Part shown: piece by piece, positions 11,232 to 32,000 of the stretch
How the letters are laid out: each line of letters begins with the position of its first letter
How positions within the stretch are numbered: position 1 is the stretch's first letter
Assembly: GCA_021650915.1 (NCBI GenBank)
Contig: CP091279.1
Span: forward strand, 1,560,001 to 1,592,000
DNA: 32,000 nt
DNA from: Candidatus Brocadia sp.
GTDB lineage: Bacteria; Planctomycetota; Brocadiia; Brocadiales; Brocadiaceae
Direction: 5' to 3'
Translations under genes and position numbers: made by a program
Notes under the pieces: generated by a model
Told to the model about the DNA's origin: nothing
Databases searched by the model: none
The model's input: the letters and a program-made list of their open reading frames with translations, nothing else

Positions 11232-14200
11232 TCAATCATCATAGTATCTGATATATGATGGATATAATATTTGATAAATACGATCAAGTTCATCAAAGAT
11301 TTTACGTGCAGTCTTGCTGTCTCGTGTTTCCTGAGAAACCCTGCCAAAAACCTCGTTAATTACATGGTAGCCTAGTGTCCTGTAGGCTTCAAACTGGGAT
11401 TCATCAAACATTTGATTGAGCGTGGTTTGATGGGGGAATGACTTGTTCTGCATCTTGTAACTCTTAATTTCCAGTGACTCGTTGCCGGTCAATGATGACT
11501 TGATGTAAACGAGGACACCATTTCTGGCAGGTTCTGGATCGACTTTTTCGTATTCAATGGTTCCTATAGCATAGTGGCTGCCGCTGATTCCCGAATCTTT
11601 ATTCCTCTTCATCCGTTCTACATTGATGGAAATAGTAACGCCGAAGTCGGTGCGGCATTTTTCAATGGCATTTGCAAGGTCTCCAAACTCCATATCGGGG
11701 TCTTCACCCACGTCGCAGGCAACGATGTACCGGCACCGTCTCCGAACAAGTTCATAAATGCCGAGGTTCTCAAAGTGACCCCCATCGGAAAGATAAACGT
11801 ATCTCTTACGGTCATCGCTCCACCCGAATAGTTCTTTCAGGAGATAATACAACCCTGAGCAACCAGGCCAATGAAAACATATTCTCGCCACAAGATGCCA
11901 TGCTTTCGAGAGACAACACAACACTGGACAAGTAGGTCTCCTATACTTCTTGAAGTTTTTTTTATGTCTCGGATTGACGAACCACTGGCCAAGGCGAACA
12001 TTAAACACCGTCATGATAAAGGCGAGGGCGCCTGACGAACGGTATCCCATGCTGGGACTTACCGCGGCGCCAGAGATGGCCATGGCATCCCCAAGGGTAA
12101 ATGGCTTATCACCATCATTCACATCTTTCCATGAACGGTATGCATCCTTTTCCAAATCCTTTCCATTCTCCTTAGAAGTGTGTTTATGATTAGACGTATA
12201 GCCATAGTGCAGGGGGGTAAAAACAAAGGATGCCGCCTTACGCTGTTGCCAGGCGAGTTCTTCCCCTTTTGTCAAATTAAGGGTCGCATTTATGATGGGG
12301 TAAGGACCGCTATAACACTTATCGGAAAGAAATTCGCTGATTGCTATTTTTGTATCCTCTGCACCAAGATACGCACGTTTCAGCCTGTCCTTATACAGGG
12401 TGTGAAGTGAAAGGGAGTTGATATTCATCCCACTGGCAATAACAATAGCAAAAACAAAAACTCCAAAAAAAGTACCAAGCAGTATCCACCAATTAGATGT
12501 TTTATCTAAGCTAAATACATGAGGCAACCAGGCTGAGATTATAATGGCTCCAACGATGATACTGCACATCCCTAAAGCTATTGCCAACTTAAAACCCCAT
12601 TTTGCGCCCCTTCCTTCAGTACCCAGGATAAATCTCTGTAACAGCCCGCTTATAACGATCATTGCATTGACCCAGGCAAAGGTAGCGAAAGACTGAAATC
12701 CGATAACGATTATTCCTGATATTTCTTTTCCAAAAATGGTTACAGCAAACAATGCGGTTGTCAGCGCCGTCCAGCCAAGAAGAGATACGGCAAAACGTCC
12801 GAGATTATTCCTCTCGTCCTCGGTGAAGGTATCTCTGGACAGTAAGAACCAAAGAGCGCCTGCAAAAAGAAAAATCAGTATAACCGTGGGCATGCCAAAA
12901 CACGCGAAGACCAAACGGCTAAGTTTGCCACTTTTACTTTTCGGGCAATCATTAGGAAACATCTCCTCAATGAGGAGGCGGTTAAGTTTTTTGACGTTGT
13001 TCCTCTCTTCTACATCCATCTCAGAAAACTGTTTCTTCCGGGAATCAGAGGTCTTTTCTGCTAAATTGTTTACCTTATAACTGAAGTTAAAATAACATAT
13101 CCTATCGTATAAGGCAGGGTACTGTATCAATTTATTAAGCCATTGAATATAGCTTTCTTCTTTGGATTTGGACAACTTATCATCAGGCTTTTTAACTCGC
13201 AAACTATCAGTAACATCTATAATTTTTTTGGCGTTTCTATAAAGGTTTCGAATTTTATAATGCGGGAATCTTGTTGGGTAAATTTCATTCAACAAAAACC
13301 AATTTAGATTTTTAATCTTTTCTTCACACCCGAAAAATATAGGAAAAGATTTTTTGCGACAATCTTCTGTTTTTTCTATAAAATAATTTATCTCCTCATT
13401 ATTGGGAAATTTGCGATAATTCTTCCACGTAAAATTGTCATAGAGATGAGTAATTTCCAACATCTCATTGAAATGTGCAATAGTATTTTCGTGGGCTTTG
13501 AAATGTGTATCGTTATCATCTATGATCCCATCATTTCTTAGCGTTGTACAAAGTGCTTCTACTTTTGATAAATCAATAAACTCGTCCTCCCTGAAATCAC
13601 CGGTGATGACTCTTTTCTGCATCCATATCCAGTTTGATAAAAAAAAGAGTAGTCCTCCAGTAACGCCTCCCGCAATCAAAAACATTATTGTTTTTATAAA
13701 TATTTTTTTTATTTGCTTTTCATTTATTGTGATTGTGAAAAGCACCCAGAGAAAATTGAGGAGTAGGAATACTGCGAAAACCCACTTCCAGTAATTTTCC
13801 GATTCAATATAATAATATCCCTTCCATATTCCGTCGCCAAGTAATAAGACTCCTATAATCATTACAAAAGACAACCGCTTCCGTTCCTTTGGACCGCTAA
13901 GGAAGCTGATGCAAATGACAATAAATATAAAGGGAATGCTCCAACACGCTATATTCATATAGCGATAAAGGGGCGCCGCTGGGTGATAAAAAAAGATGAG
14001 TAGTAAATGAGTAAAGGTTATCATGGAGAAAAGAACAGATACGAGGATGAGCAGATTGAAGAATGAGTTGCGCAGGTATGTTGTAAGGAGCAACCAGGTA
14101 TCAGTCCCCAATAACCCCTTTTGTGGTGTCAGATAGTTGCTGTAGTCCCGCAGGTGATGGATTTCGTCAGGCTCCTTCTTATTATGCTTGCTCCAGTCAG

Positions 14201-14834
14201 GATGGAGGTTGTTAATAACGATCCACCTGCCTTTGTTTCTTATCCATGCTACCAGCCAGCTTCCGATATAACCGCCACCGGATACCGTTGATAGATATTT
14301 AAAGATGGGGAGTATGCCCAATTCTGCCATGCCCTGCAACACACCAAGGTTAAAGGTGGCGCTGCGAATTCCACCGCCGGAGAAGGCAAGGCCAACGAAT
14401 GAAGCTTCATGGGCTTCTGAATATATTACATCATATATTACATCTTCGTAATATTCATAAGAATTTTTTATAAGAAGACGATACAGTTCTTTTTTGTCCT
14501 CGCTTAAATCAGTGTCTTGTTTATTTTTGCCATCATTTTTTATTTTTTCATATAACTTATTTATTTTATCTGAAAACTTGAAATCGGGGTTTCCTTCCTT
14601 TAAAGCGTCATATAATAAAACGAGGTTTTTCGAGAGGTCATCATCGTTTGATTTAGACAAACGAAATAGAAGCGACCATAATTCTTTGGGGTCTTTTTTT
14701 TTAATTATTTCTTTAAAGTTAAGTTGATTTAAGTTAGATTCATTTATAGGATGCTCTTGAATTACTCGCGAGAGTTCTTCAGTGAAGATTTGCTCGAAGC
14801 TCAAGGCGGTTGATTCCGATGGTTTTCCTGACAT
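11232..14834 (-). CDS. giant membrane-embedded patatin-like phospholipase with split catalytic domain
   Basis: 1200-aa uninterrupted ORF with GGAGG 8 nt upstream of the ATG. Patatin motifs: GLAFSGGGIRSATFNLGVLQG (aa 148-168, oxyanion loop), STVSGGGYIGSW (Ser185, codon 14280-14282; a T-V-S-G-G variant of GxSxG) and YLSDGGHFENLGIYELVRRRC (Asp1017 in D-G-G, codon 11784-11786). Hydrophobic multi-helix blocks lie at about aa 244-405 and 641-800. A charged soluble insert spans about aa 411-640. Confidence 0.8.
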   Translation of the reverse strand: MSGKPSESTALSFEQIFTEELSRVIQEHPINESNLNQLNFKEIIKKKDPKELWSLLFRLSKSNDDDLSKNLVLLYDALKEGNPDFKFSDKINKLYEKIKNDGKNKQDTDLSEDKKELYRLLIKNSYEYYEDVIYDVIYSEAHEASFVGLAFSGGGIRSATFNLGVLQGMAELGILPIFKYLSTVSGGGYIGSWLVAWIRNKGRWIVINNLHPDWSKHNKKEPDEIHHLRDYSNYLTPQKGLLGTDTWLLLTTYLRNSFFNLLILVSVLFSMITFTHLLLIFFYHPAAPLYRYMNIACWSIPFIFIVICISFLSGPKERKRLSFVMIIGVLLLGDGIWKGYYYIESENYWKWVFAVFLLLNFLWVLFTITINEKQIKKIFIKTIMFLIAGGVTGGLLFFLSNWIWMQKRVITGDFREDEFIDLSKVEALCTTLRNDGIIDDNDTHFKAHENTIAHFNEMLEITHLYDNFTWKNYRKFPNNEEINYFIEKTEDCRKKSFPIFFGCEEKIKNLNWFLLNEIYPTRFPHYKIRNLYRNAKKIIDVTDSLRVKKPDDKLSKSKEESYIQWLNKLIQYPALYDRICYFNFSYKVNNLAEKTSDSRKKQFSEMDVEERNNVKKLNRLLIEEMFPNDCPKSKSGKLSRLVFACFGMPTVILIFLFAGALWFLLSRDTFTEDERNNLGRFAVSLLGWTALTTALFAVTIFGKEISGIIVIGFQSFATFAWVNAMIVISGLLQRFILGTEGRGAKWGFKLAIALGMCSIIVGAIIISAWLPHVFSLDKTSNWWILLGTFFGVFVFAIVIASGMNINSLSLHTLYKDRLKRAYLGAEDTKIAISEFLSDKCYSGPYPIINATLNLTKGEELAWQQRKAASFVFTPLHYGYTSNHKHTSKENGKDLEKDAYRSWKDVNDGDKPFTLGDAMAISGAAVSPSMGYRSSGALAFIMTVFNVRLGQWFVNPRHKKNFKKYRRPTCPVLCCLSKAWHLVARICFHWPGCSGLYYLLKELFGWSDDRKRYVYLSDGGHFENLGIYELVRRRCRYIVACDVGEDPDMEFGDLANAIEKCRTDFGVTISINVERMKRNKDSGISGSHYAIGTIEYEKVDPEPARNGVLVYIKSSLTGNESLEIKSYKMQNKSFPHQTTLNQMFDESQFEAYRTLGYHVINEVFGRVSQETRDSKTARKIFDELDRIYQILYPSYIRYYDD

Positions 14835-24438: not shown

Positions 24439-24660
24439 GGTATTCTCCTTTTTAATCCCTTCTGGTATCCTTTACAACATTTTTCTCTGCAGGTTTCTGG
24501 CCATACGAAACCGACTCAGCAACAGGACGGGGACTTCGGCTCATCGCTCGCGATGACTTCAGAAACCCGAAGCCATGATACCCGTGCAAGTGCATGATAT
24601 ACTCAAGAGGCGTACAATTTGTGATTTATAAACTTGATACAGACTTACCATAATCTAAAG

Positions 24661-24691
24661 GGGTGGCACGGACAAGCTGTGCTTGTCCGTG
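24661..24691 (+). repeat. ggtggcacggacaa hairpin repeat (left member of an inverted pair)
   Basis: gggtgg cacggacaagc tgt gcttgtccgtg. Same family as 9884-9914. Confidence 0.55.
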
Positions 24692-24771
24692 TTTTTGTGA
24701 TACTGCTCAATACCTTGTGCTTGCAATGATCAGACTTGGTTTGTCTATCCAATTTTTAAAATAGATATTTC

Positions 24772-24902
24772 GTAACAATTTAGTTTTTTGAAAACATTTT
24801 GCATGAATAGTATTTATTGTAGGGGCAGGTTTGAAACCTGCCCCTACACGGCATGTAAAACATCGTTATTATTGAGAATTTTTCAAAAAGCTAAATTGTT
24901 AC
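24772..24902 (+). repeat. MITE-like nested-palindrome element, copy D (variant core)
   Basis: The termini gtaacaatttagttttttgaaaa / tttttcaaaaagctaaattgttac match copies A-C. The core hairpin is replaced by a different GTAG hairpin gtaggggcaggtttgaaacctgcccctac (24819-24847). The asymmetric arm acggcatgtaaaacatcgttattattgagaa is retained. Confidence 0.7.
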
Positions 24903-24934
24903 GATATTTCATAAACAACGTCGTGCAAGTTCAA

Positions 24935-24965
24935 CACGGACAAACAGAGTTTGTCCGTGCCACCC
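24935..24965 (-). repeat. ggtggcacggacaa hairpin repeat (right, inverted member)
   Basis: cacggacaaac agag tttgtccgtg ccaccc, which is the reverse complement of the 24661 family consensus. Confidence 0.55.
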
Positions 24966-25139
24966 TGTTTATCAATCTAAATATTCACGGATTGTGAACC
25001 TTTTGAGTATAAATGCAGATAAAACCATTCTCACGGTTTTGCTATACTATAACATAAAACCTCACTTATTCAAGCATTGAGACGAATACCCGTGGGAAAG
25101 ATAAAATGGATAAACTATCGATCCAACGCGTTCGCACGG

Positions 25140-25804
25140 TCATAAGCAGGGTACTGCATCAATAACCGGCTTTGAGGATACGCCGGACAAACTCTTTTCC
25201 CTGCAATTCATATCAACCCCGCACCAGGGACGAGTGAAAAACCGGGCAGAACTATGCCGGTAATTATCTGGATGGTTCGCACGACGCATTTTTTGGTAAG
25301 GCACGGGCTTAGAAAACTCTGACAGTGCCTTGATCTGTGTGTAATCGGAGGCGCTACCAGTTTTCAGAAAGTATCTTTTCAATCTGTTTTTTGATACTTC
25401 GTGCGTCAAAGGATGATTCCGGGGTAATTTTGTTCCAGTCGCGAAGTTCGGGCAGGGAGCTTGCCCAGGGCCCGGATGGCCATTCTTCCTCTTCCTCGTA
25501 ACGGAGATTACTCGCCCCAACTTCATAATTCTCATCGCCTGTAAGCCTTCTATGATTAAAGTGATATGTCACCCTCCTGAATCTGAGAGAGATCTTCCGC
25601 AAGGCGTTTGATTACACAGGGTATGAGGAACATCAGCCGATCAAGACCAGGCAAACGACCTATTCCTTGACGTGGATCCTCCGGGTCGAGGGAAATGTCT
25701 TCGTCCGCCTTGCGGAAGAAACCATCCAGTTCGGCAAGAGCATCCCTGATTTTTGATATCTCAGCGAGAATCTGTTTACGCCCCGGCGCGTTTTCCTTCT
25801 TCAT
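25140..25804 (-). pseudogene. three abutting/overlapping short ORFs in three frames; possible frameshift-degraded gene of unknown function
   Basis: 25804-25556 (82 aa, ATG start, MKKENAPGRKQILAEISKIRDALAELDGFF...), 25602-25354 (82 aa, only a TTG/GTG start, no internal Met, EEEEEWPSGPW...) and 25535-25140 (131 aa, very basic). The ORFs follow each other head to tail on one strand, and the + strand has no ORF here. No family recognised. Confidence 0.3.
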
Positions 25805-26116
25805 TTTTCCCTGCCCTATCTAGTCGACAAAAAATATACCAAGTTGCCTGACACCTACTTGCCTTTTCCCAAATTTTACTTGTCGCGAGTGCATATCCCC
25901 TTCATTTTACTGCGGAAACCCAGATGCCGCGTCTTTTCCTGTATTATTGCTTATTCTTTCCAACTGTCAATTCCAAATTTTTAAAAAACCAGACATTGGG
26001 AGCTTCGTATTGATAAACGGGCTGCATTCAGCTATAGTAACAGATACGGGATTTTTGCGGTAATTTCCGCAGAAAATAAAACACGTAACAATTCCAATAA
26101 TGAAGTTTAATCATAC

Positions 26117-27122: not shown

Positions 27123-28133
27123 ATGAAAGAAGCAATGTTTTTTGAAAAACTTGGGGACGATAAGGTAAAATGCTATCTTTGTCGTCACCATTGTATTATC
27201 AATGAAGGCAAAAAAGGTATTTGCCGGGTCAGGGAAAACCGTGCGGGAACACTCTATTCACTTGTCTATAGAAAACTTATCTCTGAAAATATAGACCCGA
27301 TTGAAAAGAAGCCTCTCTTTCACTTTTATCCTGGCAGTACCGCACTTTCTGTGGCAACGGTAGGATGCAATTTCAGGTGCATGAACTGCCAAAATTATGA
27401 AATATCCCAATTGCCAGAAGATCAAGACTCTATTGCAGGCAAAGACATTGCACCAGAAAAGATTGTTGAGGATGCCGTCCGTAATCAGTGTAAAAGTATT
27501 GCATATACGTATACTGAACCCACAATTTTTTTTGAGTATGCATACGAAATTGCAAAAATAGCGTCACAACAATCTGTCAAAAACGTATTCGTAACAAATG
27601 GGTATATAACACGCGAAGCCTTAGCAACAATAAAGCCGTATCTTCATGCAGTTAATATTGACTTAAAAAGCTTCTCCAGCCAAACATATAAAAAAATCTA
27701 CGGCGCTCAGCTGGAGCAGGTGCTTGATGGTATCCGTTCTTATAAAGAAATGGGAATCTGGATAGAAATTACCACCCTGATCATTCCAGAAATTAACGAT
27801 TCAGCATCGGAATTGCGACAGATTGCTGGGTTTATAAAGAGTGTTGGGCCCGAGATCCCCTGGCATGTGAGTCGTTTTTACCCGCGGTACCGGCTCATGG
27901 GAAAACCGCCAACGCCGGTAGATACGTTAAAAATGGCTCGTAATATAGGTCTTGAGGTAGGTCTCCGTTATGTCTACGAAGGGAATGTTCCTGGCGAAGG
28001 CGGTGAAAATACCTATTGCTACCATTGTAAAAGGCTCCTTATCAAAAGATACGGATACCAGATCCTCGAAAACGACATCGTCAATCTAAGGTGTCCATCA
28101 TGCAACACAACCATCGACGGAATTGGTATATAG
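27123..28133 (+). CDS. radical SAM enzyme, AmmeMemoRadiSam-system type (PflA/NrdG activase superfamily)
   Basis: 336 aa. N-terminal Cys cluster KCYLCRHHCIINEGKKGICRVREN, DPIEKKPLFHFYPGS, and the radical SAM CxxxCxxC seen as GCNFRCMNCQNYEISQ. This block order matches the TIGR04337-type family as I recall it. Confidence 0.8.
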   Translation: MKEAMFFEKLGDDKVKCYLCRHHCIINEGKKGICRVRENRAGTLYSLVYRKLISENIDPIEKKPLFHFYPGSTALSVATVGCNFRCMNCQNYEISQLPEDQDSIAGKDIAPEKIVEDAVRNQCKSIAYTYTEPTIFFEYAYEIAKIASQQSVKNVFVTNGYITREALATIKPYLHAVNIDLKSFSSQTYKKIYGAQLEQVLDGIRSYKEMGIWIEITTLIIPEINDSASELRQIAGFIKSVGPEIPWHVSRFYPRYRLMGKPPTPVDTLKMARNIGLEVGLRYVYEGNVPGEGGENTYCYHCKRLLIKRYGYQILENDIVNLRCPSCNTTIDGIGI

Positions 28134-28158
28134 ACATACACATTTATTGGAGGATCTT

Positions 28159-28617
28159 ATGATTGTATTAAAGAAAATACTATGCCCGGTAGACCACTCC
28201 GAGTGTTCGTATCTCGCCTTAAAGTACGCCATTTCACTGGCATTAAAGGACGAAGCACAATTATACCTTATGCATGTAATTGATGTGCGTTTATACGATA
28301 CGGAAATTTATAAATTCAGCCCTTATAAACTTAACGAGATCGATTTGAACAAGACCAGGGAAGATCTGATAAAAAGCCTGCCGGAAGGAACCTCAGACGT
28401 TCTGAACGTAGAAACAATTGTCGTAAAAGGCGTACCCTTCCAAGAGATAATTACTGCAGCAGCCTCAATCAACGCAGATATTATTGTAATCGGCACCCAT
28501 GGCAGGACCGGCCTCTCCCATGCCATTATGGGCAGCGTTGCAGAAAAAGTGGTAAGAAAAGCGCCCTGTCCGGTACTTACGGTCAGGATGCCGCACACTA
28601 TGCCTCACAAAGATTAA
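28159..28617 (+). CDS. universal stress protein (UspA family)
   Basis: MIVLKKILCPVDHSE... and the C-terminal ATP-binding motif IGTHGRTGLSHAIMGSVAEKVVRKAPCPVLTV. GGAGGA precedes ATG 28159, and the track ORF from 28123 is an upstream extension. Confidence 0.85.
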   Translation: MIVLKKILCPVDHSECSYLALKYAISLALKDEAQLYLMHVIDVRLYDTEIYKFSPYKLNEIDLNKTREDLIKSLPEGTSDVLNVETIVVKGVPFQEIITAAASINADIIVIGTHGRTGLSHAIMGSVAEKVVRKAPCPVLTVRMPHTMPHKD

Positions 28618-28634
28618 TCGTAAATGCCTTGATT

Positions 28635-28686
28635 AAAAAAACAAGCCATTGCAGCGTATAGTGTGCGCTGCAATGGCTCTTTTTTC
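28635..28686. terminator. bidirectional rho-independent terminator
   Basis: An A-run (28635-28641), the stem agccattgcagcg / cgctgcaatggct (28644-28678), then a T-run cttttttc. It lies between the convergent usp and nrdD-like genes. Confidence 0.75.
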
Positions 28687-28722
28687 AACAGGTTCTTGGG
28701 AAAAATTTACCCCCGATTATAT

Positions 28723-29115
28723 TTACCGGACTGAATACCTTCCCATATGTCTGTCATGTAGTTCACCAATTTTTGATTTGTTCCAGTTAGATACCCTGCT
28801 GTAATATCCCACTATTCGCGTAACTCCATAAAGACGAGTCGTAATCCCTGTCTCAAGAGCGTGAATAACTGATTCCACATCCTGACGAATCACGGAATCA
28901 ACATCTATGGCAAACGCGCATTCCAGTTTATGGTTAATAATCTTTATACAATCTTCTTTCGGGGTATTTCCCAGAATATCTCCATCTATCTCTAGAAATT
29001 CATGCCTTTCTATCGCTGAATCAAAGGCATTAATCTTTTCTTCTATTAATATCTGTATATTTTCCTTGCTAATGTCGCCCTGCACCATAGAATTTTCCAG
29101 TATTGCTGTTGTCAT
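28723..29115 (-). CDS. stand-alone small protein with NrdD-type (class III RNR) C-terminal glycyl-radical motif
   Basis: 130 aa, with AAGGAG 9 nt upstream of the ATG (complement of 29113-29115). The C-terminus LYGVTRIVGYYSRVSNWNKSKIGELHDRHMGRY resembles the NrdD glycyl-radical loop (R-[IV]-x-G-Y ... N-x-x-K ... E ... R). There is no catalytic barrel and none of the Zn-ribbon cysteines that precede the motif in full-length NrdD. Confidence 0.65.
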   Translation of the reverse strand: MTTAILENSMVQGDISKENIQILIEEKINAFDSAIERHEFLEIDGDILGNTPKEDCIKIINHKLECAFAIDVDSVIRQDVESVIHALETGITTRLYGVTRIVGYYSRVSNWNKSKIGELHDRHMGRYSVR

Positions 29116-29362
29116 TCTTCATATCTCCTTATGTATTGTTATTCGTTTTTTATCCTCTGCCACGCCATTTTCATTGATAAACAACCACCGTGTTTATGCA
29201 ATACGGTACCACAAACAAAGTAACACTTCTTCTAATGATATCTCACCTGACCGCACACCTCCATTTCTTTACGAAATTTTATCAAAATAACAGACATACA
29301 ATATGTAGTACACCACGGACATGCACATTTATATCAAAAAAATTTAACATGTCAAGCAAAAA

Positions 29363-29616: not shown

Positions 29617-29904
29617 TCAGCCTTCCCGGAAGTTTACGCGACGCGTGCAACGCCGATGCGCTTCGCCAATTGCCTGACTAAGCGCCTTTTCAGACGGCGG
29701 AACTGCAATCAGGTGTACATGGTTTGGCATCAGACAATAGGCCCATACTTCAACGTTCCAGTGTGAACACCACTGAGACATTAGGTCTATGTATGCCTCA
29801 TAGTCATCGTCACAGAAGAATGTTTGTAAACGTCGATTTCCCCGCTGAGTAACATGGTGTGGAACTTCCGGTACGACTACACGAGCAATTCTGGACATGT
29901 ACAC
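29617..29904 (-). pseudogene. IS200/IS605-type Y1 (HUH) transposase of the RAYT kind, 3'-truncated
   Basis: The 95-aa ORF MYMSRIARVVVPEVPHHVTQRGNRRLQTFFCDDDYEAYIDLM...WAYCLMPNHVHLIAVP carries the HUH motif (HVH). It stops at ...RRVNFREG, before the GHLWQGRF block and the catalytic Tyr helix expected in full-length members. The other two frames downstream show no continuation. Confidence 0.6.
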
Positions 29905-29914
29905 ATCTTAACTA

Positions 29915-31763
29915 GTGTTTGAACGGAAACCCCCCAGAGCCCTGTAAAGTAAGGAGAAGCTGGTGAAAAATGTTCATGAAAGTCATTGAATTTTTTCGGG
30001 TAAAAGGGTAAAATATGGCGAAAATGAAGGGATTCTGGGTATAAAGAGTCCAAATATTCGGTTCATTAACCCACTAGCCAAAGGACATTCGATAGAAGAT
30101 GAGAAAGAGATTTGAGCAGCAATTGAAGCTTGGCATCATACCCATTTCAGGGGTAAAACTGCCAATAAAGAGTCGAGATGAGCTACCACCGATACTGAGG
30201 GCGTTGCAACATATCTATGTTACACCGGAGTTGAACGAGGAGGTATTCCGGATATTAGAGGCGAAGGTAACGAAGGGGAAGAAAAAGACGGGAAGATATG
30301 GGATGGATTTATGGCATATTTTGGTGTTGTCGGTGGTAAGATTAGGGTTAGATGCCGATTATGACAGGTTGGAGGATTTTGCCAACCATCACAAACTTAT
30401 CAGGCAGATAATGGGGGTTGAGACGGCATTTGGAGAGGCGAAGGTTTTTTCGATGCAGAGCATCAAGGACAATATAAGATTGTTGGATGAGGAGACCCTC
30501 AGGCAGATAAATGAAGTGGTGATATCATCGGGGCATCAGTTGGTTAAAAAAAAGGACGAAGGACTGTGTATTAAGGTGGATACGTATGTGTTAGAGACGA
30601 ATGTACACTTTCCGACCGATATGAATTTATTGTGGGATGCGGGACGCAAGAGTCTGGACATGATAGAGGATGCAATAGAGGAAGGCATCCTGGCGGGGAA
30701 AGGATGGCGCAAGAGCAAATATTGGAGGAGAGAGTTAAAAAAGCTGATGAGGATAAGCGCAAAGGCGTCAAGCAGCGGGGGGAAAAACAAGGAAGAGCAT
30801 GTGAGGAGTTACTTGGAATTATCGAGGGGTTTGAGTGAAAAGATAGGAGCGAGTCTGTTAGCCATCTACGAAAAGGTGCTAACGACGAACCAGGTAGACA
30901 AGCATGCAGGGAAAATAGGGACACTGGAGTATTTTCACGGGATGTTGAATAAACAGATAGACCTGGTGGAGAGAAGGGTGATCCGGGATGAGGTAATACC
31001 GGCGGCAGAAAAGGTTCATTCGTTGTTTGAGCCGCATACGGAGTGGCTGTACAAAGGCAAGTCAAACAAAAGGGTAGAGTTGGGACATAATATTCTGGTA
31101 GCAAGCGATCAGTGGGGTTTCATCGTGGACCATGTGGTAGGAGAAAAACAGGCGGATGTATCGTTGGTAATTCCATTGGCAGATAGGTTGTTGAGCCGTT
31201 ACGGAGAAGGCACAATAAAGAGTATAAGTTTTGATAAAGGTTTTTACAAGAAAGAGAATAAAGAGTTGCTGAGTTTGTATATACCAGAGGTAATCCTTCC
31301 CAAGAAGGGCAAGAAGAATAAGGCGGAACAGGAAGAGGAATCGGGTAAGACATTTAAGAAGCTAAGGCACAAGCACTCGGCGGTAGAATCGGATATCAAT
31401 CGTTTGGAGCATCACGGCTTGGATAGGTGTCCGGACAAAGGGCTGCATGCCTTTAAAAGATATTGTGCAATGGGCGTGTTAGCTGCGAATTTGCACAAGC
31501 TGGGAAACGTGCTGCAGGAGAAGGCACGGAAGCAGTGCGAAAAGTTGCGAAAAGCCGCCTAAGCAAGCAAAAAACACGAAGAAAAACAGTCTGCCGGGAG
31601 GCAGGTACGCCCAGACAAGGCTAAAATAAAGGGGAAAACAAGGGAAATATGTAAAAGAACAGTATTTTTGCCAAAAACCCTAATCTCAAATCTTAAAATT
31701 ATCTATTGGTAAATAGAAAATCGACCTCGCACTTTTACAAAAAGTGCGTTTTCGTTCAGACAC
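29915..31763 (+). mobile_element. DDE insertion sequence, copy 1 (IS4/IS5/IS1182-like; family unresolved)
   Basis: The terminal inverted repeats gtgtttgaacggaaac (29915-29930) and gttttcgttcagacac (31748-31763) match at 14 of 16 positions as reverse complements (16 of 18 if the flanking TA is included). A single 487-aa transposase ORF lies inside. The whole unit repeats with period 1855 bp. Confidence 0.85.
30099..31562 (+). CDS. DDE transposase of the IS
   Basis: 487 aa. Candidate DDE residues lie in KVDTYVLETNVHFPTDMNLLWD, SISFDKGFYKKEN and HSAVESDINRLEHHGLDR. This architecture is typical of IS4/IS5/IS1182-type transposases. The family assignment needs a database search. Confidence 0.8.
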   Translation: MRKRFEQQLKLGIIPISGVKLPIKSRDELPPILRALQHIYVTPELNEEVFRILEAKVTKGKKKTGRYGMDLWHILVLSVVRLGLDADYDRLEDFANHHKLIRQIMGVETAFGEAKVFSMQSIKDNIRLLDEETLRQINEVVISSGHQLVKKKDEGLCIKVDTYVLETNVHFPTDMNLLWDAGRKSLDMIEDAIEEGILAGKGWRKSKYWRRELKKLMRISAKASSSGGKNKEEHVRSYLELSRGLSEKIGASLLAIYEKVLTTNQVDKHAGKIGTLEYFHGMLNKQIDLVERRVIRDEVIPAAEKVHSLFEPHTEWLYKGKSNKRVELGHNILVASDQWGFIVDHVVGEKQADVSLVIPLADRLLSRYGEGTIKSISFDKGFYKKENKELLSLYIPEVILPKKGKKNKAEQEEESGKTFKKLRHKHSAVESDINRLEHHGLDRCPDKGLHAFKRYCAMGVLAANLHKLGNVLQEKARKQCEKLRKAA

Positions 31764-31769
31764 TAACTA

Positions 31770-32000
31770 GTGTTTGAACGGAAACCCCCCAGAGCCCTGT
31801 AAAGTAAGGAGAAGCTGGTGAAAAATGTTCATGAAAGTCATTGAATTTTTTCGGGTAAAAGGGTAAAATATGGCGAAAATGAAGGGATTCTGGGTATAAA
31901 GAGTCCAAATATTCGGTTCATTAACCCACTAGCCAAAGGACATTCGATAGAAGATGAGAAAGAGATTTGAGCAGCAATTGAAGCTTGGCATCATACCCAT
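31770..32000 (+). mobile_element. same IS, copy 2, head-to-tail with copy 1; truncated by window edge
   Basis: 31764-32000 is identical by eye, base for base, to 29909-30145 (237 nt), including the left IR and the 5' UTR. Confidence 0.85.
31954..32000 (+). CDS. DDE transposase of IS copy 2 (first 15 codons only)
   Basis: The ATG at 31954 equals 30099 + 1855, and the sequence MRKRFEQQLKLGIIP is identical to copy 1. Confidence 0.8.
   Translation, partial: MRKRFEQQLKLGIIP

Follow-up and report, generated by a model that had tools for sequence, protein, structure and literature searches.

Can the radical loop of class III ribonucleotide reductase (RNR) be supplied by a separate small protein? 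This question is raised by a gene in a stretch of 32,000 nucleotides from Candidatus Brocadia sp. (GenBank assembly GCA_021650915.1, contig CP091279.1, positions 1,560,001 to 1,592,000), below called the window. Class III RNR makes DNA precursors in strict anaerobes, and in glycyl-radical enzymes O2 cuts the chain irreversibly at the glycine that carries the radical. The gene encodes a protein, below called the mini-protein, whose C-terminus resembles the glycyl-radical loop of the class III enzyme NrdD. Comparison of sequences and gene contexts makes it probable that this protein serves NrdD in trans as an autonomous glycyl-radical domain of the NrdD type, and thus is the class III RNR counterpart of GrcA/YfiD. 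This reading is preferred because there are NrdDs that have lost the radical glycine (below, Gly-less NrdDs) although their bodies are conserved, because genes of mini-proteins adjoin them in three operons, and because NrdG is retained.

The C-terminal end of the mini-protein (...LYGVTRIVGYYSRVSNWNKSKIGELHDRHMGRYSVR) contains the NrdD glycyl-radical motif RxxGY followed by W-N-x-x-K...E...R (TRIVGYYSRVSNWNKSKIGELHDR), and was aligned to NrdD residues 762-796. In BLASTP alignments the tail is identical to residues 762-796 of the Brocadia NrdD at 25 of 35 positions (71%), and to the NrdD of a member of the Brocadiaceae at 27 of 35 positions (77%). Only residues 95-129 can be aligned to planctomycete NrdDs by BLASTP; residues 1-94 have no NrdD counterpart. 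The Pfam profile NRDD (PF13597) matches residues 97-123 with its last 27 positions only (22.1 bits, below the cut-off of 26.2), and TIGR02487 also matches with its last 27 positions only (18.3 bits versus a cut-off of 326.35). Compared with the NrdDs of Prevotella copri (8P23), T. maritima (4COI) and phage T4 (1H7A), the mini-protein is homologous in the last ~35 residues, where it is 71-77% identical to planctomycete NrdDs; unlike NrdD, it has no ATP cone, barrel, finger-loop cysteine or Zn ribbon, and its residues 1-94 are unrelated. There is no CxxC pair among the 130 residues that could form a Zn site. The Pfam domain Gly_radical (PF01228) does not match the mini-protein at E<=0.1, and no GrcA model occurs among its NCBIfam matches. 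By sequence, the mini-protein is an NrdD in no respect other than the loop. All this agrees with the first-pass annotation, which was made from the letters and the open reading frames (ORFs) alone and described a 130-amino acid (aa) ORF with its own ribosome-binding site (RBS) and an NrdD-type loop at the C-terminus, lacking the barrel and the Cys-rich Zn site.

The N-terminal part is predicted to form a domain of its own. In the AlphaFold2 model its predicted local distance difference test score (pLDDT) is 85-89 over residues 21-90; a strand comes next, and after it the Gly loop and a helix. A Foldseek search of the model against PDB and BFVD produced no match at E<=1e-3.

A database entry from Candidatus Brocadia sp., annotated as "hypothetical protein", has the same sequence as the mini-protein (100% identity), and the close homologues number 307. 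Those listed, 120 in all, are 92-180 aa long and come, among others, from Brocadia, Jettenia, Kuenenia, Wujingus, Loosdrechtia and other Brocadiia/Planctomycetota. Among 19 orthologues no position of the loop varies, and the N-terminal motifs HEFLEIDGD, NH and LETG are invariant too. When 1.84 billion cluster representatives were searched with a family profile, 767 matched at E<=1e-3, and for 172 of these E was 1e-10 or lower. The best 150 are nearly all complete proteins of 95-180 aa, and 116 of 149 representatives (the best 150 minus P0072) passed a strict filter that demanded the motif, no Zn ribbon and a length of 95-180 aa (median 121 aa). The invariant family motif is TR[IV]VGY..NWNKSK..EL.DR. 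In an alignment of 69 members R100, G103, Y104, W111, K115, E118, R122 and Y127 are invariant, and the N-terminal domain is variable yet alignable. The cluster representatives are named only "hypothetical protein" or "anaerobic ribonucleoside-triphosphate reductase"; PHROGs contains no family for the cellular or the phage mini-proteins, and Pfam and NCBIfam yield solely sub-threshold matches to the NrdD tail.

Since the Gly motif is invariant in the 19 orthologues and the family profile retrieves 767 representatives, the resemblance to the NrdD loop is not due to chance, and the invariant motif implies purifying selection. Judging from these alignments, the mini-protein is one of a widespread family of autonomous glycyl-radical proteins of the NrdD type that has not been described; complete relatives of 95-180 aa number in the hundreds and occur in every anammox genus as well as in other Planctomycetota, in Elusimicrobiota and in phages. 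The initial suggestion of an autonomous protein of this type is thus borne out by hundreds of independent homologues of similar size with a conserved Gly motif. Separately, a second, divergent paralogue of the mini-protein (126-173 aa, ~45-49% identical) was observed in an unrelated context in Kuenenia hertensis (L029:9917-10381), Brocadia sp. DTUAMX2 (L033:9998-10486) and locus L034.

Intact class III RNRs are encoded elsewhere in the same genomes. A search with a Brocadiaceae NrdD recovered NrdDs of 815 aa from Brocadia and Jettenia. The NrdD and the mini-protein could be paired through genomes whose longest contigs have exactly the same length: P0283 and P0001 (4,046,273 bp), P0281 and L092 (3,250,501 bp), and P0280 and P0061 from Jettenia (3,970,402 bp). 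In one metagenome-assembled genome (MAG) the mini-protein gene and nrdD lie on a single contig of 2.9 Mb (L035, L059). The nrdD of L059 is split (655 + 205 aa) by a frameshift, which is probably an assembly error, and this split was not used as evidence. The Brocadia assembly GCA_000987375.1 contains the array nrdR-nrdD-nrdG(229 aa)-smc, and the tail of its NrdD is intact. The architecture is thus that of GrcA, a stand-alone copy of the loop of 130 aa accompanied by a full-length enzyme with its own loop.

In other lineages the NrdD loop has been lost. Among the 120 proteins that best match a Brocadiaceae NrdD, 41 have no RxxG[YFW] motif near the C-terminus, including proteins of Scalindua, Scalinduaceae, Anammoxibacter and "Brocadiales bacterium"; two of the 41 are partial sequences. 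Most retain a decayed relic of the tail, e.g. YGIKKRDSHDKINNWDRSKVEELVNRH, or, in a Scalindua protein, ...YGIKKRDSHDKINNWDRSK..., and in one Brocadiaceae NrdD RIVGY is replaced by RIGDY. The mini-proteins of Scalindua and Anammoxibacter have perfect motifs GITRIVGY[YF]S..NNWNKSK, whereas NrdD in these two genera has a degenerate tail. The nrdG gene directly follows the gene of the Gly-less NrdD in Scalindua (L096) and on another planctomycete contig (L177).

The decay is restricted to the tail. Columns that are at least 97% invariant among 172 intact NrdDs were examined in an alignment of 227 NrdDs, the other 55 being Gly-less. The Gly-less proteins keep 98.3% of the 229 invariant body columns, including all seven invariant body cysteines, but just 38.8% of the 16 invariant tail columns. 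The Zn-ribbon cysteines are 100% conserved on the NrdD body even in the Gly-less proteins. Because of this difference between body and tail, the Gly-less NrdDs are, on the evidence of their sequences, still working enzymes and not pseudogenes. Since NrdG is kept beside them, it must have another substrate.

When GTDB species genomes were scanned for the family motif, ~40 mini-protein loci and ~39 full-length NrdDs with the same tail emerged. In an Elusimicrobiaceae genome (L047) the operon nrdG-nrdD-mini encodes an NrdD of 784 aa that ends right after the Zn-ribbon cysteines (...CQSCGAENVSGVKEIFSCEC and the stop codon), and 25 nt after nrdD begins the gene of a mini-protein of 102 aa, which has an RBS of its own. 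All 16 closest homologues of this NrdD, taken from several data sources, have no Gly motif and end just past the Zn ribbon; twelve of them are full-length, at 778-784 aa. The loop is present in the next tier of homologues (at most 61% identity, 805-830 aa). Two further operons have the structures nrdR-(89 aa)-nrdG-nrdD(781 aa, truncated)-mini(98 aa) (L095) and dCMP deaminase-nrdR-nrdD(801 aa, Gly-less)-mini(98 aa, after a gap of 17 nt)-thioredoxin-like-nrdG (L178). The operon-encoded mini-proteins share the N-terminal domain of the family (E = 2e-9 to 2e-15 with a profile of this domain only).

Two side observations concern the NrdDs of this clade. The Gly-less proteins (P0303-P0379, P0390-P0405; loci L047, L095, L096, L177, L178) are annotated in databases as "anaerobic ribonucleoside-triphosphate reductase". 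Some cellular and phage NrdDs are unusually long, 1,000-1,680 aa (L050, L054, L209, L244-L248; P0402-P0405, P0437, P0441); the precomputed Pfam domains of those with P numbers include intein or Hint, and P0402-P0405 combine an intein with a truncated, Gly-less C-terminus.

The simplest reading of the NrdD-tail comparisons would be an evolutionary series. It would start with an intact NrdD accompanied by the mini-protein (Brocadia, Jettenia, Kuenenia), continue with mutation of the glycine and decay of the tail, and end with deletion of the tail and the mini-protein gene in the operon. Under such a series the mini-protein would have to supply the radical loop in trans, and NrdG would have to activate the mini-protein. 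The homology and gene contexts, the breadth of the family, the fact that decay has struck specifically the tails of NrdD, and the persistence of NrdG lead us to infer the following scheme of radical formation at G103, activation, docking and catalysis in trans. Under anoxia the activase, most likely the organism's own NrdG encoded in the nrdR-nrdD-nrdG array elsewhere, would take the pro-S hydrogen of G103. The N-terminal domain would dock the mini-protein on the NrdD body, with the Zn ribbon staying on NrdD. The radical loop would then enter the barrel beside the finger-loop cysteine in place of the C-terminal loop of NrdD, and nucleotides would be reduced in trans. In P. copri NrdD the glycyl-radical domain consists of the Zn site, a buried Gly loop and a surface tail, and it is fully disordered in the dATP state; therefore the loop can leave the barrel.

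The role of the mini-protein may differ between lineages. In Brocadia, Jettenia and Kuenenia, where the NrdD loop is present, it would act as a spare or alternative part, of use after cleavage of NrdD by O2 at the glycyl radical. In Scalindua, Anammoxibacter, other Brocadiales and the Elusimicrobiota clade it would be the only radical site, forming a two-component class III RNR. This fits the first-pass proposal of a spare part for an NrdD encoded elsewhere, given the nrdR-nrdD-nrdG arrays elsewhere in Brocadia and Jettenia and the relatives encoded directly after Gly-less NrdDs. Some gene contexts suggest a link to stress: in one lineage labelled Elusimicrobia/Clostridia the mini-protein gene lies between those of an Rrf2 regulator and desulfoferrodoxin, and in Brocadiaceae it lies beside a universal stress protein (Usp) gene. 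Such stress may include that of micro-aerated anammox reactors; anammox MAGs are known to carry class III RNR, and the reactors are periodically micro-aerated.

The closest functional parallel is GrcA/YfiD (IPR011140) of E. coli and its phage T4 version Y06I. According to papers cited in a 2026 review, YfiD/GrcA rescues O2-cleaved pyruvate formate-lyase (PFL) and also full-length PflB with an inactive glycine. The latter case matches the situation of the Gly-less NrdDs. Like the mini-protein, GrcA and Y06I are stand-alone proteins of ~100-150 aa whose C-terminus copies the radical loop of a large enzyme encoded elsewhere and whose N-terminal part is not derived from the enzyme; phage versions exist in both cases, and the expected logic, activation by the enzyme's own activase followed by insertion of the loop in trans, is the same. 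The differences are in the loop (NrdD-type TRIVGY..NWNKSK versus PFL-type RVSGY), in the partner (class III RNR versus PFL) and in the N-terminus, which is a predicted folded alpha/beta domain in the mini-protein and disordered in YfiD. Moreover, in several NrdD lineages the small protein appears to have become obligate after loss of the enzyme's loop, which has not been reported for PFL. By analogy, the mini-protein is GrcA-like in its presumed way of working, yet it lies outside the GrcA family by sequence.

Until now PFL was the only glycyl-radical enzyme with a known spare part; the mini-protein is probably the first for another enzyme of this kind. The 2026 review states that no spare-part protein is known outside formate lyases and lists their existence for other glycyl-radical enzymes as an open question, in agreement with the first-pass remark that no NrdD-type equivalent of GrcA had been described. 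In the literature we found no description of an NrdD spare part, of a split or Gly-less NrdD, or of the function of AmmeMemoRadiSam (see below), and two surveys of the RNR family are silent on NrdDs without the glycine and on glycyl-radical domains that stand alone. If the proposed role is correct, the family would be the first spare-part protein for class III RNR, and Scalindua, other Brocadiales and some Elusimicrobiota would have an undescribed architecture of this enzyme, with the radical site on a separate subunit of ~100-150 aa. It would also matter for how anammox bacteria tolerate oxygen in micro-aerated reactors. Genome annotation is affected as well: a Gly-less NrdD passes for intact, and mini-proteins are entered as "hypothetical" or, wrongly, as NrdD.

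Phages also carry mini-protein genes. A scan of IMG/VR yielded 74 loci (L179-L252). In 63 of them a small ORF of 60-225 aa has the Gly domain, and the N-terminal-only profile also recognizes 52 of these 63; seven further IMG/VR loci encode full-length phage NrdDs. The contigs are real phages, because the neighbours of the mini-protein genes are structural and replication genes, those for portal, capsid/protease, minor tail, head-morphogenesis, DNA polymerase A and primase/helicase proteins (examples are L204:5001-5447, L184:4983-5351 and L221:4938-5303). No NrdD body was found within 5 kb of any of the 63 phage mini-proteins, and an NrdG-like gene was found only in L226. The upstream ORFs of 640-780 aa were considered as divergent NrdD bodies, but they proved to be portal, capsid, head-morphogenesis and DNA polymerase genes. 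By analogy with Y06I of T4, the phage mini-protein is a new candidate auxiliary gene; carried alone, it would presumably sustain the NrdD of the host.

Several points weigh against a trans-acting radical domain. The radical at G103, the docking and the catalysis in trans are all inferred. The Gly region has a pLDDT of only 53-71 in the isolated AlphaFold2 model. The degenerate NrdD tails keep the relic NNW[DN]..K..EL..R[HY], which might still partly fill the binding site. Co-occurrence of a Gly-less NrdD and a mini-protein in a single genome is established by adjacency only in L047, L095 and L178, and in Scalindua, Anammoxibacter and other Brocadiales it comes from matching different assemblies at the level of genus or order. 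One study reported several RNR types in a Brocadia MAG. Finally, the conserved neighbour of the mini-protein gene, a radical SAM gene, is not explained by this model.

Table 1. Features of the mini-protein locus and its flanks (positions in the window)
Feature	Position	Strand	Remarks
Mini-protein gene	28723..29115	-	130-aa ORF; stand-alone NrdD-type glycyl-radical domain protein
RBS AAGGAG of the mini-protein gene	29125..29130	-	9 nt 5' of ATG; read from sequence
N-terminal alpha/beta domain, residues ~17-90	28846..29067	-	family-specific; helix, three strands, two helices (predicted)
Glycyl-radical loop and C-terminal helix/tail, residues 95-130	28726..28833	-	homologous to the extreme NrdD C-terminus
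Predicted radical glycine G103	28807-28809	-	codon; in the RIVGY loop
TIGR04337 (AmmeMemoRadiSam-type) radical SAM gene	27123..28133	+	342.8 bits versus cut-off 220
Universal stress protein gene	28159..28617	+	Pfam Usp 126.9 bits; between the radical SAM and mini-protein genes
Intrinsic-terminator hairpin	28644..28678	.	16-bp stem, 8 GC pairs; A-run before, T-run after
IS200-like Y1 transposase fragment	29617-29904	-	directly upstream of the mini-protein gene
IS with DDE transposase	30099-31562		next after the Y1 fragment

The radical SAM protein of the window is a member of TIGR04337, the radical SAM component of the AmmeMemoRadiSam system (TIGR04335, TIGR04336, TIGR04337); relatives of its gene pair with LigB/Memo-AMMECR1 fusions. 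It is not an NrdG: NrdG2-type and TIGR04337-type enzymes were told apart with NCBIfam, and in the TIGR02495/TIGR02491 test it scores 44.5 bits on NrdG2 versus a cut-off of 131.15, whereas the genes in the nrdG position of loci related to the Brocadia nrdD locus score 137-189 bits. The Usp and radical SAM genes apparently form one operon. The terminator between this operon and the mini-protein gene may be used in both directions, since it has an A-run before and a T-run after the stem; the radical SAM and mini-protein genes, being convergent, are not co-transcribed. No Memo (TIGR04336), AMMECR1 (TIGR04335), nrdD or nrdG genes occur among the scanned ORFs of the window or the gene calls of the same region in other Brocadia strains. 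The first-pass description of an AmmeMemoRadiSam-type gene, convergent across a shared terminator and unaccompanied by Memo and AMMECR1, is therefore accurate.

That annotation further proposed that the mini-protein and the adjacent TIGR04337 enzyme are a dedicated pair of cofactor and activase, either serving NrdD or acting as a new small radical carrier; in such a pair TIGR04337 and not NrdG would install the radical. The block of mini-protein, Usp and radical SAM genes is indeed kept in Brocadia, Jettenia, Loosdrechtia and Kuenenia, although the other flank differs in Kuenenia or consists of IS elements or toxin genes at the strain level, and the TIGR04337 enzyme belongs to the clade of glycyl-radical activases. 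In non-anammox Brocadiales the mini-protein gene is 1-2 genes away from that of a 410-aa Memo protein. The TIGR04337 proteins encoded beside nrdDG in other Planctomycetota are 42-43% identical to that of the window; in two loci the gene (~330 bits) immediately follows nrdD-nrdG (L070:11197-12228, L056:11291-12280). Among 80 metagenomic relatives of the TIGR04337 gene beside nrdDG, ~9 are in arrays nrdR-nrdD-nrdG-rSAM-smc (rSAM, radical SAM gene) and ~14 directly follow nrdR in arrays of serine hydroxymethyltransferase (SHMT), dCMP deaminase, nrdR and rSAM (284 aa). Thus, unlike the AmmeMemoRadiSam system as known, the Planctomycetota clade is repeatedly found beside nrdDG, nrdR or the mini-protein gene, a context that is not part of the published AmmeMemoRadiSam description.

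Nevertheless, a dedicated pair is unlikely. The two genes are convergent across a terminator, and the three operons with a Gly-less NrdD and a mini-protein contain NrdG2 and no TIGR04337 gene. No TIGR04337 gene was seen near the Scalindua mini-proteins, and in the phage loci, screened with an NrdG query, a radical SAM match was present only in L226. NrdG is kept beside the Gly-less NrdDs. In 12 of the 80 metagenomic loci the same radical SAM clade is in its canonical, different context, paired with LigB/Memo-AMMECR1 fusions or Memo, and each of the associations could go back to one ancestral juxtaposition that has simply persisted. The autonomous radical protein for NrdD therefore stands, but TIGR04337 as its activase is not established. 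NrdG, the more economical choice, is the likely activase of the mini-protein. Proximity of TIGR04337, mini-protein and nrd genes recurs more often than we would expect by chance, although it may reflect a few ancestral juxtapositions, and a functional link between the TIGR04337 enzyme and the mini-protein is possible. A more specific suggestion, which we regard as doubtful, is that TIGR04337 would be a second activase or re-activase for NrdD-type glycyl-radical loops, those of the mini-protein or of NrdD itself, tied to a modular two-component class III RNR whose radical subunit would be detachable, phage-supplied and, when O2 has damaged it, replaceable. If correct, this would provide the first substrate for the orphan AmmeMemoRadiSam system.

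Some additional observations were made on these loci. Recurrence of TIGR04337 genes in arrays of deoxynucleotide metabolism was also observed in L099-L103 and several of L119-L168. The 410-aa Memo-family protein of non-anammox Brocadiales has an N-terminal extension of ~110 residues that belongs to no assigned family, and in L007:10749-11978, L008:9184-10428 and the related loci L024-L031 an LDcluster4 (SLOG/LOG-like) gene lies between the mini-protein gene and the gene of this protein.

It is very improbable that the mini-protein is a decoy or regulator, which would mimic the NrdD loop and titrate NrdG or block the NrdD barrel, e.g. to shut down synthesis of deoxynucleoside triphosphates under stress, with no catalysis of its own. 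The loop recognized by NrdG is common to the mini-protein and NrdD, stress-related genes (Usp, desulfoferrodoxin/Rrf2) are among the neighbours, and in Brocadia, where NrdD is intact, a catalytic role is not strictly needed. However, a decoy does not account for the loss of the radical glycine in conserved NrdDs precisely in the lineages and operons with the mini-protein, and the radical glycine and surrounding residues are invariant throughout the family, as in a working radical site.

The last alternative of the first-pass annotation, a fossil of the nrdD 3' end or a recent duplication fragment with retained expression signals, agrees with the confinement of NrdD likeness to the last ~35 residues, but it is refuted by the family survey: the proteins are conserved over the full length with their own N-terminal domain across phyla and phages, hundreds are of similar size, the invariant motif points to selection, and recent duplication is excluded because the tail of the Brocadia NrdD is intact and differs from the loop of the mini-protein at the 71% identity given above.

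The rest of the window contains housekeeping genes, a fatty-acid hydroxylase gene and insertion sequence (IS) elements, and no Rfam family was found anywhere in it. The first 237 nt of the IS with the DDE transposase (29909-30145) are repeated at 31764-32000 with 100% identity and a spacing of 1855 nt; thus there are two tandem copies of this IS. The flank upstream of the mini-protein gene varies at the strain level, since other Brocadia strains have tetrahydrofolate (THF) dehydrogenase or PemK toxin genes there. The region 24439-26116 (~1.7 kb), between the genes of dihydrodipicolinate synthase (DHDPS) and the fatty-acid hydroxylase, contains only short overlapping ORFs of doubtful coding value. 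A 1,200-aa ORF at 11232-14834 on the minus strand has as its sole Pfam match a weak patatin-like phospholipase domain (residues 148-256).

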